A stretch of 64,000 nucleotides of DNA from Crocinitomicaceae bacterium (GTDB taxonomy: Bacteria > Bacteroidota > Bacteroidia > Flavobacteriales_D > Crocinitomicaceae), in NCBI GenBank assembly GCA_044374225.1, contig JBILOX010000006.1, forward strand, positions 12,861 through 76,860. Reading direction: 5' to 3'. Below are positions 27,446 to 42,283 of the stretch, piece by piece. The position numbers and the translations under genes are program-made. The notes under the pieces are model-generated. The model was not told the origin of the DNA, did no database searches, and saw only the letters and a program-made list of their open reading frames with translations. Positions within the stretch are counted from its first letter, which is position 1. Every line of letters begins with the position of its first letter.

Positions 27446-27550
27446 ATACCAATTTACTTGTTAAATGACGTAATTGAAAATCTATCTGGTATAATGCCGA
27501 GTTAGTTTTCAACGAGTATTCTACACGACAATTGAAAACAACTTCGGTAT
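27446..27550 (+). mobile_element. 105-bp MITE-like element (family A), copy 1
   Basis: ataccaatttacttgttaaatgacg...gaaaacaacttcggtat. Its reverse complement is identical (105/105, checked base by base) to 34809-34913. Short imperfect terminal inverted repeats (ATACC...GGTAT) and an internal gttttcaa/ttgaaaac hairpin. No coding capacity. Confidence 0.9.
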
Positions 27551-27759
27551 AACAATTACTTGATTTAATCTAGAAGAAAACATTCTCCGATTAAAAATTC
27601 ATGCTGTTTTATAAGTGTTTCAAATCACAATCGTTTTTTTATGGACATATTTATTGATTAGAAATAATTTAAAAAGATCTTTCATCTTACATGATAAGCA
27701 AAATATCACTTAAAGTGCAAGATTGTTTCAGTTAATTAACGTTTCTTTGCATACTACTA

Positions 27760-33957: not shown

Positions 33958-34665
33958 CTACCTGTTTTGAGCCTCCCAAGCGCGATATAACTCAAAGTAA
34001 CTTTTTGTTTCAACCACAATTGCTCCGCCCAGAGTATCTCCATATTTTGCTGGAAGCCCGCCTGTATAAACCATCATTCTGCTAATTGAACAACTCGGTA
34101 CATTAAAAACTTCATTGCATTTAATTCCGTCTAAAACATAGATCATATCTCCTTTACGTGCACCTCGGAACATCAATTGACCATCTTCGTCCATTTTAAT
34201 TTCAGAAGACATTGAAGTTGCCATTCCTGCCACACTAAATTTTAAAGTACTTTTCGTAATCTCCTCTGAAGTTAACTCTTTCACAGGTAAAAAACCTTTT
34301 ACTAATCTAACAGGTGGTTTAACTCTAACTTCAACTAAAGATAGAACTTTTGATTCAAATTTTATGGTACCCAAATCACACAATGCTTCAATTGGAACAT
34401 CGCATTTAATGTTTGAAAGTGTATCGCCCAAATACGTGATTTTCATTAAATACTTTCCCGCTGGAATCTCAGAAATTCTAAATCTTCCGTCGGCATCTAC
34501 TGTCGATTGGTATTTTCTACCATTATCATCAACAACTGCTCGCGCTCCAAATAACTTTTCACCTGTTTTAAGAGAAATTACTGTTCCAACGATATCGCCT
34601 GTTACTTGTTGTCCAAATGTGCTTCCTGCTATCAATAACATCCACACTGATACTAACTTTTTCAT
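33958..34665 (-). CDS. Carboxypeptidase-regulatory-like plus TonB-dependent-receptor Plug-like domain protein (no barrel)
   Basis: 235 aa. Signal peptide MKKLVSVWMLLIAGSTFGQ. GTVISLKTGEKLFGARAVV...DADGRFRISEIPAGKY is CarbopepD_reg-like. FRGARKGDMIYVLDGI is Plug-like. The ORF ends without any beta-barrel region. Confidence 0.7.
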   Translation of the reverse strand: MKKLVSVWMLLIAGSTFGQQVTGDIVGTVISLKTGEKLFGARAVVDDNGRKYQSTVDADGRFRISEIPAGKYLMKITYLGDTLSNIKCDVPIEALCDLGTIKFESKVLSLVEVRVKPPVRLVKGFLPVKELTSEEITKSTLKFSVAGMATSMSSEIKMDEDGQLMFRGARKGDMIYVLDGIKCNEVFNVPSCSISRMMVYTGGLPAKYGDTLGGAIVVETKSYFELYRAWEAQNR

Positions 34666-34808
34666 GGTTTTAAGTTTTATTTCTTTTAAGATGCAAAGCG
34701 GGTAACTTTTCCATAAATTTATTGTTTATTTTTTGGATGGTATCGGTTCAATACTAAAATTTGCACCATAGATTCGTAACGCAATTGTTTCACTTCCTGC
34801 TAGTAGTA

Positions 34809-34913
34809 ATACCGAAGTTGTTTTCAATTGTCGTGTAGAATACTCGTTGAAAACTAACTCGGCATTATACCAGATAGATTTTCAATTACGTCATTTAACA
34901 AGTAAATTGGTAT
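34809..34913 (-). mobile_element. 105-bp MITE-like element (family A), copy 2, inverted
   Basis: The reverse complement is 105/105 identical to 27446-27550. Confidence 0.9.
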
Positions 34914-34982
34914 AATTTCACTTTTTAGCTACCTAAACTAAAATTTATGTTGCTCCATTGTTAATAATCAACTAAAGATGCT

Positions 34983-34990
34983 TAAATTTG
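34983..34990 (+). promoter_or_regulatory. Candidate -7 box (TAAATTTG) of the ilv operon promoter
   Basis: Matches TAnnTTTG. A TTG at 34958-34960 could be the -33 element. The box lies 16 nt upstream of the leader-peptide ATG. Confidence 0.5.
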
Positions 34991-35006
34991 CAGAACAATT
35001 AAAAAA

Positions 35007-35060
35007 ATGACTCAACAAAAAAACATTAACGTAATTATTATCGTTCCAAGCGACCGGTGA
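35007..35060 (+). CDS. Candidate ilv leader peptide (17 aa, MTQQKNINVIIIVPSDR)
   Basis: A short ORF between the promoter box and a strong terminator, directly upstream of ilvE. Six of seven consecutive codons (INVIIIV) encode Ile or Val. Confidence 0.6.
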   Translation: MTQQKNINVIIIVPSDR

Positions 35061-35085
35061 GAAAGTGTTATAACTATATAATTCG

Positions 35086-35117
35086 AAGCCTTTCTCTCAA
35101 CAGAAAGGCTTTTTTTT
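35086..35117 (+). terminator. Attenuator terminator of the ilv leader
   Basis: aagcctttct-ctcaac-agaaaggctt followed by a T-run (35111-35117). It ends 18 nt before the ilvE ATG. The upstream gagaaag (35059-35065, overlapping the leader stop codon) is complementary to ctttctc (35090-35096) in the left terminator arm, giving a candidate antiterminator. Confidence 0.7.
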
Positions 35118-35135: not shown

Positions 35136-36023
35136 ATGTATTACAACGCTGATTCAAAAGTTTACTTAGACGGAAAGTTCATTTTGGCAAAGGATGCACA
35201 AACTGATTTGTATTCTCAGACACTTCACTATGGGAGTGGGGTTTTTGAAGGAATTCGAGCCTATGATACCCCTGATGGAGTTCGGATTTTTAAAGCAAAG
35301 GAGCATTACGAACGTCTAAAGTACTCAGCTGAGTCCATGCACATGCCTTTTCCTTGGACTGTTGAGGAACTGACAAAAATATCGTATGAATTACTAGAAA
35401 TCAACAACTTAAAAGATGCATACATCCGACCTTTAGTTTATTTAGGCGCAAATATGTCACTCACTCCCACAAATGAGGTGCATATTGTTTTAATGGCGTG
35501 GGAATGGGGCAAATATCTTGGAGATACCTTATTACATGTGATGTTATCCTCTTACCAACGTCCAAATCCAAAGAGTTGTCATGTTCAGGCAAAGGTTGTT
35601 GGTCATTATACAAATAGTATATTAGCAACCACAGAAGCAAAACAAAAAGGATATCACGAGGCTTTATTGACAGATATAAATGGCTTTATCGCAGAAGGTC
35701 CTGGGGCAAATTTCTTTTATGAAAAAGCAGGTAAGTTATTTACACCTCCACTCGGAAATATTTTGTCAGGAATAACCAGAGCAACTGTATTTGAAATTGC
35801 CAAAGAATTGGACATAGAAGTAGAAGAACGATTATTCAAACCAGAAGAAATCTATTCGGCTGATGCTGCATTTTTCTGTGGAACAGCCGCAGAAGTCATA
35901 GGCATCGGAAAATTCAATGATTATGTTTTACCCATGAAATGGGAAGACTCTAATTCCTCACTGATCCAACGAAAATATAAGAGAAGAGTAGCTTTTAACG
36001 AATATAAAGAATTCTATTTATAA
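35136..36023 (+). CDS. ilvE: Branched-chain-amino-acid aminotransferase (class IV)
   Basis: 295 aa. [14 protein letters not shown] and EGPGANFF motifs are typical of IlvE. It sits in the ilv operon. Confidence 0.9.
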
Positions 36024-36024
36024 T

Positions 36025-37698
36025 ATGGAACTGAATAAATATAGTAAAACACTAACGCAGGACGAAACTCAACCAGCGGCAAAAGCTATGTTGTATGGCG
36101 TAGGGTTGACAGAAAATGATATGAACAAAGCACAAGTTGGAATTGTGTCCAGCGGTTACGAGGGTAATACGTGTAATATGCACCTAAATGACCTTGCTAA
36201 AACTGTTAAAATGGGCGTTCAATCAGCTGAACTGGTTGGTCTAACTTTTCATACAATTGGTGTCAGTGATGGAATGGCAAACGGAACCGACGGAATGCGT
36301 TATTCCCTAGTTTCTAGAGATATTATTGCTGATTCTATTGAAGCCGTGACAGGAGCACAATGGTATGATGGAATCATAGCAGTTATGGGTTGCGACAAGA
36401 ATATGCCCGGTTCAATTATTGCCATGGGAAGACTGAATCGACCAGCAATAATGGTTTATGGAGGAACAATCCATTCAGGAAAATGGAAGGGAGAGGATTT
36501 AAATATTGTTTCTGCTTTTGAAGCTTTAGGAAAACGAATTGCCAATAATATCTCTGACGAAGATTTCAAAGGAATCATTCAGAATGCCTGTCCTGGTGCT
36601 GGTGCTTGTGGCGGAATGTACACAGCAAACACCATGGCGTCAGCCATCGAAGCGCTTGGAATGAGCTTACCTTACAGTTCATCCAATCCTGCTACAAGTG
36701 AAGAAAAACAACACGAATGTTTGCGAGCAGGAAGTACAATTCGATTATTACTCGAAAAAGATATTAAGCCAAGTGATATTATGTCGCGAAAGGCTTTTGA
36801 AAATGCAATGGTAATGGTTTCAGCACTTGGAGGTTCAACAAATGCAACTTTACATTTATTGGCAATGGCCCACGCTATAGGAGTAGATTTAAAACTTTCC
36901 GACTTTCAGGAAATAAGTGACCGAATACCGTTGATAGCCAATTTGAAGCCAAGTGGAAAATTCTTAATGGAAGATGTTCACCGAGTAGGCGGAACTCCAG
37001 CGATAATGAAGTATTTGTTAGAGAAAGGTCTTCTCCATGGTGATTGTTTGACAGTAACAGGAAAAACGCTCGCGGAGAATTTAGCGGGAGTTCCATCACT
37101 TATTGAAGGCCAAGAAGTAATTGTTCCATTAGAAACACCAATAAAGAACTCTGGGCATATTCAAATTTTGTTTGGAAACCTAGCAGAACGAGGTTCGGTA
37201 GCTAAAATCACAGGAAAAGAAGGTGAATTTTTCCGTGGCCCTGCAGTCGTTTTTGACAATGAATTCGATACAATTAAAGGTATTTCATCAGGAAATGTAA
37301 AAGCAGGCGATGTAGTAGTAATTCGCTATTGTGGTCCGAAAGGAGGTCCTGGAATGCCCGAAATGTTGAAGCCAACCTCAACGATTATTGGCGCTGGTTT
37401 GGGATCTTCTGTTGCATTGATTACCGATGGTCGCTTTTCAGGTGGTACTCACGGGTTTGTAGTAGGTCATATTTCGCCAGAAGCGTTTGATGGTGGAACG
37501 ATTGCATTAGCAAAAGACGGTGACATGATTACTATTGATACAATTAAAAATAAGCTCTTTCTTGAAGTTTCGGAAAAAGAATTGGCGGAAAGAAAAAGCC
37601 ATTGGAAACAACCAGAACTAAAAGTAAAATCCGGTGTTTTATACAAGTACGCGAAAAGTGTTTCGTGCGCTTCATTAGGTTGTATAACAGATTTATAA
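36025..37698 (+). CDS. ilvD: Dihydroxy-acid dehydratase
   Basis: 557 aa. Motifs GCDKNMPG and TDGRFSGGT. Confidence 0.95.
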
Positions 37699-37704
37699 AA
37701 GATT

Positions 37705-39420
37705 ATGAACAAATTATCGATTTCCGGTGCCGAGGCAGTTATTCGATCTCTCTTAGCAGAGGATGTATCCACTATTTTTGGTTATCCTGGCGGTGCCATC
37801 ATGCCAATTTATGATGCACTTTACGATTTTAAAGAAGAAGTAAATCACATTCTCGTAAGACATGAACAAGGCGCAATTCATGCTGCACAGGGCTTTGCAA
37901 GAGCTTCAGGCAAAACAGGAATTGTTTTCGCAACATCAGGACCCGGTGCTACAAATCTTATAACAGGATTGGCAGACGCTCTAATTGATTCTACACCAAT
38001 TGTATGTATTACTGGACAAGTTGCCTCTCATCTTTTGGGAACCGATGCATTTCAAGAAACGGATGTAATTGGTATCTCTATGCCAGTAACAAAGTGGAAT
38101 ATTCAAGTAACAAAAGCAGAGGATATTCCGTCAGCTATTGCTCGAGCATTTCACATTGCATCAACAGGAAGACCAGGGCCAGTTTTAATTGACATTACCA
38201 AAGACGCACAATTCGGGAAAATGGATTTCGCCTATGAAAAGTGCATTTCTGTACGAAGCTATGTTCCTGTGCCAAAAGTTGATCTTAGTATTTTGGAAAA
38301 GGCAGTAGAGCTGATTGATCGAGCAGAAAAACCGTATTTATTGATCGGACAAGGAATTTTGTTAGCTGAAGCAGAAAATGAGTTACTTCAATTTGTTGAA
38401 AAATCAGGAATCCCTGTCGCTTCAACACTTTTGGGTTTAGGGGCTTTTCCTGCCAATCACCAAAATTATGTAGGTTATTTGGGTATGCACGGAAACTATG
38501 CTCCAAATGTTTTGACCAACGAATGTGACTTACTCATTGCAATCGGAATGCGTTTCGATGATCGAGTAACAGGAGATGTCTCTCGATATGCCAAACAAGC
38601 CAAAATTATTCACGTAGATATTGATAAGGCAGAGATCAATAAAATCGTAAAAGTAGATATCGCCATTAATGCAGATGCTAAGGAAACCTTATCAATTTTG
38701 ACTAAATTCGTTCAAAATAAATCGCATAAAGCTTGGATTCAAGAATTTAGAAAATTAGAACAGGAAGAACATCAAGAAGTTATAATTGATGCAATAAATC
38801 CACAAGGCCCAGAATTAAAAATGTCTGAGGTGGTAAATTTAATTTCAGAAACACTGAAAGGAAATGCGATTGTTGTATCAGATGTCGGTCAGCACCAAAT
38901 GATTACATCACGTTATTTTAAGTATCAACATCCAAAAACAAACATTACATCAGGAGGTTTGGGTACCATGGGATTTGCACTTCCCGCTGCAATTGGAGCG
39001 AAACTTGCAAAACCTGAAAAAGAAGTTATTGCTATAATTGGTGACGGCGGTTTTCAAATGACTATTCAAGAATTAGGAACCATCTTACAAGCTGAAATTG
39101 CGGTTAAAATTGTCATTTTGAATAATAACTTTTTAGGAATGGTTCGTCAGTGGCAGCAATTATTTTTTGATAAACGATACTCATTTACAGATATAAAAAA
39201 CCCAAATTTTCTCAAGATTGCCGAGGGTTACGGAATTCAAGGCCGAAAAATTACGTCGCGTGATGAACTTCAAGATGGACTAAACGCCATGTTGTCGTGC
39301 AAAGAAAGTTATTTATTGGAAGTTATGGTGGAGCAAGAGGAAAATGTATTTCCAATGCTTCCAACCGGAGCCTCTGTTTCAGAAATTATTTTAAGTGAAA
39401 AACATGCATCAAACGTATAA
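37705..39420 (+). CDS. ilvB: Acetolactate synthase large subunit
   Basis: 571 aa. N-terminal GYPGGAIMPIYDAL and ThDP-binding motif GDGGFQMTIQEL. Confidence 0.95.
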   Translation: MNKLSISGAEAVIRSLLAEDVSTIFGYPGGAIMPIYDALYDFKEEVNHILVRHEQGAIHAAQGFARASGKTGIVFATSGPGATNLITGLADALIDSTPIVCITGQVASHLLGTDAFQETDVIGISMPVTKWNIQVTKAEDIPSAIARAFHIASTGRPGPVLIDITKDAQFGKMDFAYEKCISVRSYVPVPKVDLSILEKAVELIDRAEKPYLLIGQGILLAEAENELLQFVEKSGIPVASTLLGLGAFPANHQNYVGYLGMHGNYAPNVLTNECDLLIAIGMRFDDRVTGDVSRYAKQAKIIHVDIDKAEINKIVKVDIAINADAKETLSILTKFVQNKSHKAWIQEFRKLEQEEHQEVIIDAINPQGPELKMSEVVNLISETLKGNAIVVSDVGQHQMITSRYFKYQHPKTNITSGGLGTMGFALPAAIGAKLAKPEKEVIAIIGDGGFQMTIQELGTILQAEIAVKIVILNNNFLGMVRQWQQLFFDKRYSFTDIKNPNFLKIAEGYGIQGRKITSRDELQDGLNAMLSCKESYLLEVMVEQEENVFPMLPTGASVSEIILSEKHASNV

Positions 39421-39919
39421 CATATCACTCTTTACAGAAAACAGTATCGGGATTTTAAATCGCATCACGATCATTTTTACACGACGACACTTAAATATTG
39501 AAAGTATAACAGCTTCTGAATGTGAAATTCCGGAGGTTTACCGCTACACAATTGTTGTCAATACCTCTTTGGAACAAGTAATAAAAGTAGTGAATCAAAT
39601 TGAGAAACAAGTAGACGTTTTAAAAGCGTTTTACCATGCAGATGCGGAGGTCGTATATCAAGAACTGGCTTTATATAAGCTTCCAACAAATCTATTGAAG
39701 GGAGAGGAAATTGAAAAAGTGCTCCGACAACATCATGCGCGTATTTTATCGTTCAGTGCTGAATTTACAACGATTGAAAAAACAGGGAGACCGGAAGAAA
39801 TTAACAGTCTATTTGCAGATTTAAAACCATTTGGCGTTCTAGAATTTGCAAAGTCAGGTCGAGTGGCAATTTCAAAACCAATGAAAACATTGGAAGATTA
39901 TTTAAAAGAATTAGGGTGA
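39404..39919 (+). CDS. ilvN: Acetolactate synthase small (regulatory) subunit
   Basis: ACT-domain N-terminus ISLFTENSIGILNRITIIFTRRHLNIESI. The ATG at 39404 is preferred over the GTG at 39395. It overlaps the ilvB 3' end. Confidence 0.9.
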   Translation: MHQTYNISLFTENSIGILNRITIIFTRRHLNIESITASECEIPEVYRYTIVVNTSLEQVIKVVNQIEKQVDVLKAFYHADAEVVYQELALYKLPTNLLKGEEIEKVLRQHHARILSFSAEFTTIEKTGRPEEINSLFADLKPFGVLEFAKSGRVAISKPMKTLEDYLKELG

Positions 39920-39999
39920 AAATAAAATAAATAAATGTAAAATAACGATTTAGCTTGATTAATTCTAAATTCTTCATTCTAAATTTTAAATTAAAGTAT

Positions 40000-41043
40000 A
40001 TGGCAACAATAAATTTTGGAGGAGTTAATGAAAGAGTAGTTTTGCGAGAAGAATTTCCATTGGAAAAAGCGCAAGAAGTATTGAAAAACGACACAATCGC
40101 TGTAATTGGCTATGGTGTACAAGGCCCAGGACAAGCAATGAACCTAAGGGATAATGGCTTTCATGTACTAGTTGGACAGCGCAAAGGAGGCAAAAGTTGG
40201 GACAAAGCAGTTACTGATGGTTGGAAGGAAGGCGAAACACTACTCGAAATCGATGAAGCATGTAAAAAAGCAAGTGTAATCATGTATTTACTTTCCGATG
40301 CGGGACAAATAGATTCATGGAAAACAATTGAAGCAAATTTAAGCGAAGGTAAGACTCTATATTTTTCACACGGTTTCGGTGTTACTTTTCATGAACAAAC
40401 AGGCATTATTCCACCGAAAAATGTGGATGTCGTATTGGTTGCTCCAAAAGGTTCTGGTACATCGTTAAGACGATTATTTTTAAAAGGAGAAGGAATCAAT
40501 TCAAGTTTTGCTATATATCAAGATTTTACAGGAAAAGCTGAAGAAAGAACCTTGGCCTTAGGAATTGGTGTTGGTTCAGGTTATTTATTCGAAACTGATT
40601 TCAAAAAAGAAGTGCTGTCAGATCTAACAGGAGAAAGAGGTATACTAATGGGGGCATTGGCTGGAATGTTTGAGGCACAATATCAAGTATTGAGAGGTCA
40701 TGGCCATTCTCCGTCTGAGGCATTTAATGAAACAGTTGAGGAATTAACACAAAGTCTCATGCCATTGGTTGCAGAAAACGGAATGGATTGGATGTATGCA
40801 AACACATCTGTTACAGCACAAAGAGGAGCTTTGGATTGGAAGAATAAATTTAGAGATGCAGCCTTACCCGTTTTCAATTCATTATACGAAGAGGTTGCTT
40901 CGGGAAGAGAAGCTAAGCGTGTTATAGAAGAAGGAAGCAAACCAGATTACCGCGAAAAGTTGGAGAAAGAATTGAAAGAAATTCGTGAATCTGAATTGTG
41001 GCAAGCTGGAAGAGCTGTTCGTGGATTACGACCTAAACAATAA
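40000..41043 (+). CDS. ilvC: Ketol-acid reductoisomerase
   Basis: The start is set at the ATG at 40000 (MATINFGG). NADPH-binding motif GYGVQGPGQAMNLRDNG. Confidence 0.95.
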   Translation: MATINFGGVNERVVLREEFPLEKAQEVLKNDTIAVIGYGVQGPGQAMNLRDNGFHVLVGQRKGGKSWDKAVTDGWKEGETLLEIDEACKKASVIMYLLSDAGQIDSWKTIEANLSEGKTLYFSHGFGVTFHEQTGIIPPKNVDVVLVAPKGSGTSLRRLFLKGEGINSSFAIYQDFTGKAEERTLALGIGVGSGYLFETDFKKEVLSDLTGERGILMGALAGMFEAQYQVLRGHGHSPSEAFNETVEELTQSLMPLVAENGMDWMYANTSVTAQRGALDWKNKFRDAALPVFNSLYEEVASGREAKRVIEEGSKPDYREKLEKELKEIRESELWQAGRAVRGLRPKQ

Positions 41044-41044
41044 A

Positions 41045-42283
41045 ATGAACAAAAGTCAATTTATAAAAGGAAAGTTTCCCTATTTTGTCCGAGAAACACC
41101 ACTAGAATTCAGTAAGAAATTATCTGAAAGATTCGGTGCACAAATTTATTTAAAACGGGAGGACTTACAAACTGTCCGTTCATATAAAATTCGTGGTGCT
41201 TTTGCAAGAATGTTACAATTGACAGATGACCAAAAAAGTAAAGGGGTTATTTGTGCCTCCGCGGGTAATCATGCACAAGGAGTGGCTTTTTGCTGTAAAG
41301 AAATGCAAGTAAAAGGAACGATTGTCATGCCTGAAACTACACCTAAGCAAAAAATAAACATGGTAAAAAGCTTTGGTGAGGAATGGGTAACAATTTTATT
41401 AGTTGGGGATACCTTTGATGCAGCGAAGCATGTGGCTGAAATCAAAGCTGCTTCAGACGCCTTGTGTTTTATTCCACCATTTGATGATGAATGGGTAATT
41501 GCAGGTCAAGGCACTGTTGGAATTGAAATATTGAGTCAATTGGGAGCCTTGCCTAATTTTGTATTAGTTCCTGTGGGAGGAGGCGGTTTGGCGGCAGGGA
41601 TTTGCAGTGTAATGTCAGAAACTTCACCTGAAACTAAAATAATTGGCGTTGAGCCAACAGGCGCACCTTCAATGACAGAGGCACTTAAAAATGGTGCTCC
41701 CGTTGAACTTCAACAGATCGATAAATTTGTGGATGGAGCGTCAGTAAAACGAGTAGGCGATTTGAATTTTTCGATTTGTAAAAATAAACTATCAACGATG
41801 CTTTTAGTTGATGAAGGCAAAATCTGTGGGACAATCCTACAATTGTATAATGAATTTGGAATCATTGTAGAACCCGCTGGGGCGCTAACTGTGGCAGCAT
41901 TGGAACAATTAAATCCAGAAGAAATAAAAGACAAAACCGTTGTTCTAATTGTCAGTGGAGGAAACAACGATATAACTCGAACGGAAGAAATTAGAGAGCG
42001 CTGGATGTTGTACGAGGGATTGAAACATTATTTTCTGATACGCTTTCCGCAGCGACCTGGAGCCCTCAAAGAATTCGTTTCAGATGTGGTGGGACAAAAT
42101 GACGATATTGTATATTTTCAATTTTCCAGCAAAACAGGTCGTGAAAGTGGCCCTGCAGTTGTTGGAATTGAAACAGCCCAATCAGAAGATCGAATTTCTA
42201 TTGAAAACAAACTTCGAGAAAAAGGATTTGATTTTGAATACCTCCAACCAAACTCACTACTTTTTCAGCAATTGGTCGGCTAG
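41045..42283 (+). CDS. ilvA: Threonine ammonia-lyase (biosynthetic threonine dehydratase)
   Basis: The start is set at the ATG at 41045 (MNKSQF), 1 nt after the ilvC stop. PLP-lysine motif SYKIRGA, a GGGGL loop and a C-terminal ACT-like regulatory domain. Confidence 0.9.
   Translation: MNKSQFIKGKFPYFVRETPLEFSKKLSERFGAQIYLKREDLQTVRSYKIRGAFARMLQLTDDQKSKGVICASAGNHAQGVAFCCKEMQVKGTIVMPETTPKQKINMVKSFGEEWVTILLVGDTFDAAKHVAEIKAASDALCFIPPFDDEWVIAGQGTVGIEILSQLGALPNFVLVPVGGGGLAAGICSVMSETSPETKIIGVEPTGAPSMTEALKNGAPVELQQIDKFVDGASVKRVGDLNFSICKNKLSTMLLVDEGKICGTILQLYNEFGIIVEPAGALTVAALEQLNPEEIKDKTVVLIVSGGNNDITRTEEIRERWMLYEGLKHYFLIRFPQRPGALKEFVSDVVGQNDDIVYFQFSSKTGRESGPAVVGIETAQSEDRISIENKLREKGFDFEYLQPNSLLFQQLVG

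Follow-up and report, generated by a model that had tools for sequence, protein, structure and literature searches.

The window analysed here, a stretch of 64,000 nucleotides from a freshwater Flavobacteriales bacterium, carries six consecutive ilv genes on its forward strand. The order ilvE-ilvD-ilvB-ilvN-ilvC-ilvA, which had been proposed in an earlier note on this DNA, is backed by NCBIfam matches. The first gene, ilvE (35136-36023), encodes a branched-chain amino-acid aminotransferase (NF005146, 300.7 bits, above the cut-off) and is followed by ilvD (dihydroxy-acid dehydratase, 36025-37698; NF002068, 800 bits), ilvB (acetolactate synthase large subunit, 37705-39420; TIGR00118, 745.8 bits) and ilvN (acetolactate synthase small subunit, 39395-39919; TIGR00119, 105.9 bits). 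The ketol-acid reductoisomerase gene ilvC (39955-41043; TIGR00465, 314.8 bits) and the threonine ammonia-lyase gene ilvA (40985-42283; TIGR02079, 573.6 bits) complete the operon. The listed start codons of these last two genes, TTG and GTG, were assigned mechanically, and as listed the two ORFs overlap by 59 nt. Since the family matches begin only at residues 43 and 34, respectively, and the genes would otherwise share these 59 nt, the true starts of ilvC and ilvA are probably located further downstream.

The region preceding ilvE contains a compact set of regulatory elements. The earlier note had described a promoter box, a 17-codon ORF, a terminator ending 18 nt before ilvE and a complementarity to the motif GAGAAAG, and we found each of these at the same position. 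The -7 promoter box TAAATTTG at 34983-34990 on the forward strand is of the TAnnTTTG type and is also seen in relatives. A TTG at 34958-34960, 22 nt upstream of the -7 box, is a putative and weakly assigned -33 element; in close relatives the equivalent is TTTG, 21 nt upstream of the box. This assignment follows the promoter consensus of Bacteroidota. The distance from the TAnnTTTG box to the leader ATG is 22-26 nt in the window and in the nine relatives of the closest type, which suggests a 5′-UTR of about 10 nt, and in four more loci the box lies further upstream, at 32-42 nt. A separate arrangement was seen in one Crocinitomicaceae lineage (L010-L013, L046, L048, L058), where tandem repeats of the GGTTA/GGTTTA type, for example AGGTTAGGTTAGGTTAGGTTGAAC, occupy the 60-70 nt upstream of the leader ATG, immediately before the start codon; no TAnnTTTG box was found within 60 nt in these loci. 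The window also contains a 113-nt inverted-repeat arm at 34801-34913, 97% complementary to its partner at 27446-27558; this arm ends 45 nt before the putative -33 element of the ilv promoter.

The leader ORF MTQQKNINVIIIVPSDR starts with the ATG at 35007 and consists of 17 codons and a TGA stop codon at 35058-35060. It is the only open frame in this region. A run encoding I-N-V-I-I-I-V (35025-35045; ATT, AAC, GTA, ATT, ATT, ATC, GTT) provides four Ile and two Val codons. The ORF is followed by a hairpin with a stem of 11 bp, formed by GAAGCCTTTCT (35085-35095) and AGAAAGGCTTT (35102-35112) and closed by the 6-nt loop CTCAAC, and by a T8 tract (35110-35117). With a hairpin stability of about -14 kcal/mol, 35085-35117 was the top-ranked terminator-like site in a 10-kb scan. 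The terminator is located between the promoter and the ilv operon, with 18 nt separating the end of the T tract at 35117 from the ilvE ATG at 35136. The gene upstream of the leader (33958-34665) is encoded on the opposite strand, so the terminator at 35117 does not serve to end any gene of the forward strand.

To describe the alternative pairings, we divide the leader into four regions, all on the forward strand. Region 1 (35038-35046) is the 5′ strand (UUAUCG.UC) of a weak 1:2 hairpin predicted by folding, with its partner at 35052-35060. Region 2 (35057-35069) is the 5′ strand of a candidate antiterminator and spans the leader stop codon; it pairs with 35087-35098. Region 3 (35085-35098) comprises the left arm of the terminator and three loop bases and is common to antiterminator and terminator, while region 4 (35102-35117) contains the right arm and the T tract. 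The earlier note had pointed out that GAGAAAG (35059-35065) is complementary to CTTTCTC (35090-35096). This complementarity is present, and the helix is longer than described there. Beyond a 1-nt bulge it is extended by the pairs G35067-C35089, U35068-G35088 and U35069-A35087, and a further pair is formed by G35057 and C35098. The 1:2 hairpin, which was absent from that description, connects the end of the Ile/Val run with the stop region, and an equivalent small hairpin of different sequence was found in most lineage groups. In the window it is weak (-6.7 kcal/mol for the whole segment, z = -0.1), so its role is presumptive. Hairpins of this kind do not outcompete the 2:3 pairing in the naked fold.

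Folding predictions were made with and without ribosome masks. Before region 4 is available, region 3 of the window leader pairs with region 2, whether the RNA is naked or carries a ribosome stalled at the Ile codons. When the stop codon is masked by a ribosome, region 3 is left unpaired. The antiterminator duplex, at -8 to about -11 kcal/mol, is weaker than the terminator at about -14 kcal/mol, and the full-length leader always adopts the terminator at equilibrium, even with the stalled-ribosome mask. A thermodynamic switch is ruled out by these full-leader folds, which gave the terminator every time under ribosome masks, and the decision must therefore be kinetic. Classical trp and ilv attenuators likewise decide kinetically. 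The antiterminator is the helix predicted to arise first in naked RNA, so termination might be bypassed in transcripts that are not translated.

The conservation of a short Ile-rich ORF and a terminator upstream of ilvE, a check that the earlier note had itself proposed, was examined in a set of 49 related IlvE loci. Of these, 45 were of the Flavobacteriales type with the upstream region included; the relatives are mostly metagenome-assembled genomes, for which some species labels are unreliable. The arrangement was observed in 43 of the 45 loci, across several Flavobacteriales families and with carriers from Crocinitomicaceae, Flavobacterium, Fluviicola and others, and an Ile-rich leader with a terminator was missing from two (L033 and L041). 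Because the layout recurs in 43 of 45 loci with different sequences, it is not explained by chance. A covariance model built from 20 leaders was additionally run on 301 evenly sampled Flavobacteriales genomes and gave matches in 44. The 24 best-scoring matches to which a locus was assigned all immediately precede ilvE or ilvD. No ilv gene adjoins any of the six weakest loci, most of which are plain terminators at gene ends. This type of IlvE is encoded in 28 of the 301 genomes, 21 of which have a match to the model. On inspection, five of the six remaining assessable loci also showed an Ile-rich leader and a terminator, so that a leader is present in 26 of 27 assessable loci; one of the 28 genomes lacks it and one locus is cut by a contig end. 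Across the 20 aligned sequences, 96.8% pairing was counted in the terminator stem, three base pairs had both partners replaced, and shuffled alignments never did as well. One locus (L069, reverse strand, about 1485-1855) carries two tandem Ile-rich leaders before ilvE, MKTLVSIIVIINSTE followed by LERNINIVIINSR with a GTG start, and each has its own terminator.

The leader peptides, such as MKQVIIIQVIIDIPKE, MKNINITISIIKNIRVI, MQVVNIHIIISIITIW, MKNNNVIIINTIIVWTT and MKLNVIIESIIVTVISIIGSVTGRMAYE, are 14-28 residues long and diverge widely between lineages except for their Ile content. In 41 unique leaders, Ile accounts for 33.7% of the residues, Val for 8.5% and Leu for 1.9%, compared with 7.7%, 6.3% and 8.8% in the long ORFs of the genome. 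The other two frames of the leaders contain 8-11% stop codons. On this composition, the leader is predicted to sense mainly isoleucine, with valine in second place. The presumptive gene starts of the genome are preceded by A-rich, G-poor sequence without a Shine-Dalgarno signal. In this context the leader ATG ranks in the 58th percentile of gene starts and in the 98.7th percentile of internal ATGs; the ilvE start ranks in the 59th percentile of gene starts.

The complementarity between the stop-codon region and the terminator was assessed locus by locus. Every 16-nt window upstream of the terminator (about 190 per locus) was compared with the left arm and loop, and the most complementary window started no more than 8 nt from the leader stop in 40 of 43 loci. 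In the Fluviicola pair, in which the leader is longer, the best window is located 19 nt before the stop. In a swap test with 21 lineage representatives, region 2/region 3 duplexes had a mean stability of -13.1 kcal/mol for cognate partners versus -9.7 kcal/mol for swapped partners. None of 10,000 permutations was as good as this difference of 3.4 kcal/mol (p<1e-4). Matched changes on the two sides include GUGAGA/UCUCAC, UGACGAGA/UCUCGUCA, GGUGAAAGG/CCUUUCUCC, ACGGAUUGG/CCUUUUCCGU and GAAGAAUGGC/GCCAUUCC. These per-locus tests were used in place of a column count in a fixed register. In that count the antiterminator was 81% paired versus 42-63% in slid registers, and no excess of covariation over shuffles was observed for the antiterminator. 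The GAGAAAG/CTTTCTC core is nearly invariant, and lineages differ in their register.

The distances within the leader are also conserved. Counted from the first base of the final Ile/Val codon, region 2 begins at a median distance of 13 nt (interquartile range 10-16). It spans positions from about 0 to +13 relative to the leader stop, and is followed by the end of the terminator at +54 (interquartile range 53-55). In a bacterial ribosome, the A site and the front edge are about 13 nt apart. The spacing of region 2 thus fits the ribosome footprint, such that region 2 would be freed by a stall at the regulatory codons and masked by a ribosome at the stop codon.

The host genome was searched for related pathways and for similar leaders. 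No leuB, trpE or thrC was found above threshold in the genome. The host is therefore probably auxotrophic for Leu, Trp and Thr, judging from its gene content, while it retains ilvEDBNCA. Without leuB, the ilv operon would supply Ile and Val and not Leu, which matches the Leu-free leader, and the absence of the three genes means that no leu, trp or thr leaders could be searched for in this genome. A strict genome-wide scan for a short ORF followed by a terminator and a gene returned only the ilv and his leaders as convincing cases. A Leu-rich candidate before a PabB-like gene was also noted in the genome-wide leader scan. The His leader MILTNTHHHLLLG is located upstream of hisG (host contig C58, minus strand, about 39109-39348) and has a terminator and alternative pairings. 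Its ATG lies only 4 nt past the promoter box TATTTTTG, and the transcript may therefore have almost no 5′ leader or none at all. Eight other Flavobacteriales genomes (L088-L093, L096, L097) likewise have a His-rich leader with a terminator in front of hisG. In a genome of another family (L084, reverse strand, about 1472-1725), the tandem Phe/Tyr-rich leaders MSQSASFFYYYFNYSG and MKSNTFYFWYYFYNTHQSE, each with a terminator, precede a pheA-like (prephenate-dehydratase-like) gene, MKLKIAIQGIKGAFHEEA. The occurrence of codon-matched leaders for three pathways argues that sensing by the ribosome is in general use among Flavobacteriales. The earlier note had questioned whether ribosome-mediated attenuation operates in Bacteroidota, with their short leaders poor in Shine-Dalgarno sequences. 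The typical start context of the leader and the His and Phe/Tyr leaders elsewhere in the order answer this question on comparative grounds.

Taken together, these data point to a ribosome-mediated leader-peptide transcription attenuator that controls ilvEDBNCA and senses mainly isoleucyl-tRNA and secondarily valyl-tRNA. Judging from sequence and comparison, we assign this reading a probability of about 0.85. The classical attenuation logic suggested in the earlier note gains support from the conservation of the layout, the position of the antiterminator at the stop codon, the co-evolution of regions 2 and 3 and the footprint-sized spacing. The TAnnTTTG promoter would start transcription about 10 nt before the leader ATG, and a ribosome would translate the 17-codon leader as the RNA polymerase moves on. 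Such coupling of transcription and translation is presumed here; we know of no demonstration of it in Bacteroidota. With Ile and Val in good supply, translation would run to the TGA at 35058, where the ribosome would cover region 2 (35057-35069). Region 3 would then stay unpaired until region 4 emerges, and the 3:4 hairpin together with the U tract would end the transcript at about 35117. A shortage of charged tRNA-Ile or tRNA-Val would make the ribosome stall in the run at 35025-35045. With its front edge about 13 nt past the A site, the stalled ribosome would cover region 1 and leave region 2 free. Region 2 could then capture region 3 ahead of the synthesis of region 4, so that the terminator would not form and the polymerase would enter ilvE.

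It might be argued that a small molecule, a protein or uncharged tRNA, and not a translating ribosome, recognizes the leader RNA and that the ORF is incidental or auxiliary. Translation of the leader ORF is itself a prediction, and branched-chain amino-acid operons in Firmicutes are indeed controlled by T-boxes and CodY. A search against Rfam, including its riboswitch and T-box families, gave no match near a gathering score over the leader at E-values up to 10; the best overlapping scores were at chance level, with 17-20 bits versus thresholds of 41-43. Besides this lack of a family near threshold, the leader comprises only about 110 nt and its conserved structure is limited to three small helices. 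What has been kept across the lineages is the amino-acid composition and the reading frame, not the nucleotide sequence, and the His and Phe/Tyr leaders exchange the codon type to suit their operon, as expected for codon sensing. We therefore consider a sensor other than the ribosome very unlikely. Even less likely, in our estimate, is an ordinary or leaky unregulated terminator, belonging to an upstream transcript or left over from a repeat element, with the Ile-rich ORF as a by-product of AT-rich DNA. The genome has a G+C content of 34% and ATT-rich stretches are common in it, the 113-nt inverted-repeat arm ends nearby at 34913, and the weakest six loci found by the covariance model are not beside ilv genes and are mostly gene-end terminators. 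On the other hand, the upstream gene at 33958-34665 is on the other strand, the other frames of the leader are closed, and in 43 of 45 loci the ORF, the Ile run, the position of the stop codon and its complementarity have persisted through sequence turnover.

Finally, the short ORF might encode a functional hydrophobic micro-peptide, acting for example at the membrane, and the terminator would then end its own small transcript. The peptides are hydrophobic with a conserved composition, and leader peptides that act in trans exist, such as peTrpL (PMC7298713). This explanation appears the least likely of the three, given that peptides of 14-28 residues differ widely in sequence between lineages except in their Ile content, that they are always encoded between the promoter and ilvE, and that their stop codon lies inside the antiterminator. 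Nothing in the data requires a functional peptide.

The attenuator proposed for ilvEDBNCA resembles those of the enterobacterial ilvGMEDA (ilvL) and ilvBN (ivbL) operons, in which a short leader ORF with codons for the end products and a terminator also precede the first structural gene, the antiterminator uses the 5′ arm of the terminator and the position of the ribosome sets the outcome. However, there is no sequence similarity to these systems. The leader described here has 17 codons versus 32 and is dominated by Ile and free of Leu. Moreover, the stop codon lies within region 2, the 1:2 pairing is very weak, and the mRNA has no Shine-Dalgarno sequence, a 5′-UTR of about 10 nt and a promoter of the Bacteroidota type. 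A comparative-genomic study of 2004 by Vitreschak and co-workers reportedly predicted attenuators in Proteobacteria for the operons of the branched-chain amino acids, His, Thr, Trp and Phe, and extended this ‘in some cases’ to Bacteroidetes/Chlorobi. The Bacteroid-trp motif combines a short ORF containing Trp codons with a terminator. In Bacteroidetes it was predicted to be a cis-regulatory leader preceding an operon for amino-acid biosynthesis (RF01692; Weinberg et al. 2010, PMC2864571). The ilvE leader differs from it in amino acid and operon, and RF01692 did not match the ilvE leader.

Outside Proteobacteria, the ilvBNC attenuator of Corynebacterium glutamicum has been described by a three-hairpin model with mutational support (PMC11857589). 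It shares with the ilvE leader a branched-chain leader peptide and three alternative hairpins, but belongs to another phylum, with a different gene order and leader and no sequence in common, whereas the ilvE attenuator is predicted from sequence and comparison. The ilv-leu operon of Staphylococcus aureus likewise has a leader-peptide attenuator, with a Leu-rich peptide, together with CodY (PMC5794164), and represents a further branched-chain operon outside Proteobacteria. Unlike the ilvE leader, it is Leu-rich, is partnered with CodY and depends on Shine-Dalgarno initiation. A transcriptome study of Bacteroides merely remarks on short ORFs ‘reminiscent of leader peptides’ (PMC7366714). Our literature search, to which the 2004 comparative study did not belong, returned no description of an Ile leader in Bacteroidota. 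The ilvE leader is very probably a newly seen example of a familiar type of attenuator.

The distribution of the operon is uneven. At a strict threshold, this ilvE was present in only 2 of 25 genomes of the host genus, and two other congeners have a version of ilvE that is 61-63% identical and is preceded by the different leaders MKNYNTIKRIIEIIAVRN and MQLKKTIQEIIKIIAKRN. This sparse occurrence, together with diverged versions that carry other leaders, makes the operon look accessory and repeatedly acquired. We tentatively raise a wider interpretation, of which we are more doubtful than convinced. Flavobacteriales may possess an uncatalogued set of compact attenuators (Ile/ilv, His/his and Phe/Tyr/pheA) on mRNAs without Shine-Dalgarno sequences, in which the 5′ leader is short or almost missing. 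In that case, the strict spacing of these attenuators, which matches a ribosome footprint in size, might be the first comparative evidence of selection for close coupling of ribosome and RNA polymerase in Bacteroidota, and the ilv operon might move between genomes as an accessory cassette with its own attenuator.

As the proposed mechanism is a textbook one, the main value of the finding lies in annotation and in its use as a research tool. The leader is flagged as an unannotated regulatory mini-gene, and the aligned leaders could serve as the seed of an RNA-family entry for ilv leaders of Flavobacteriales. For the organism, an ilv operon that appears to be tuned chiefly to isoleucine fits a genome without the leucine branch. 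For the order, the ilv leader offers a clearly delimited and widely conserved test case for transcription-translation coupling in Bacteroidota on mRNAs that lack Shine-Dalgarno sequences, and cultivable carriers such as Flavobacterium proteolyticum, F. lacisediminis and F. cheniae make such experiments feasible.
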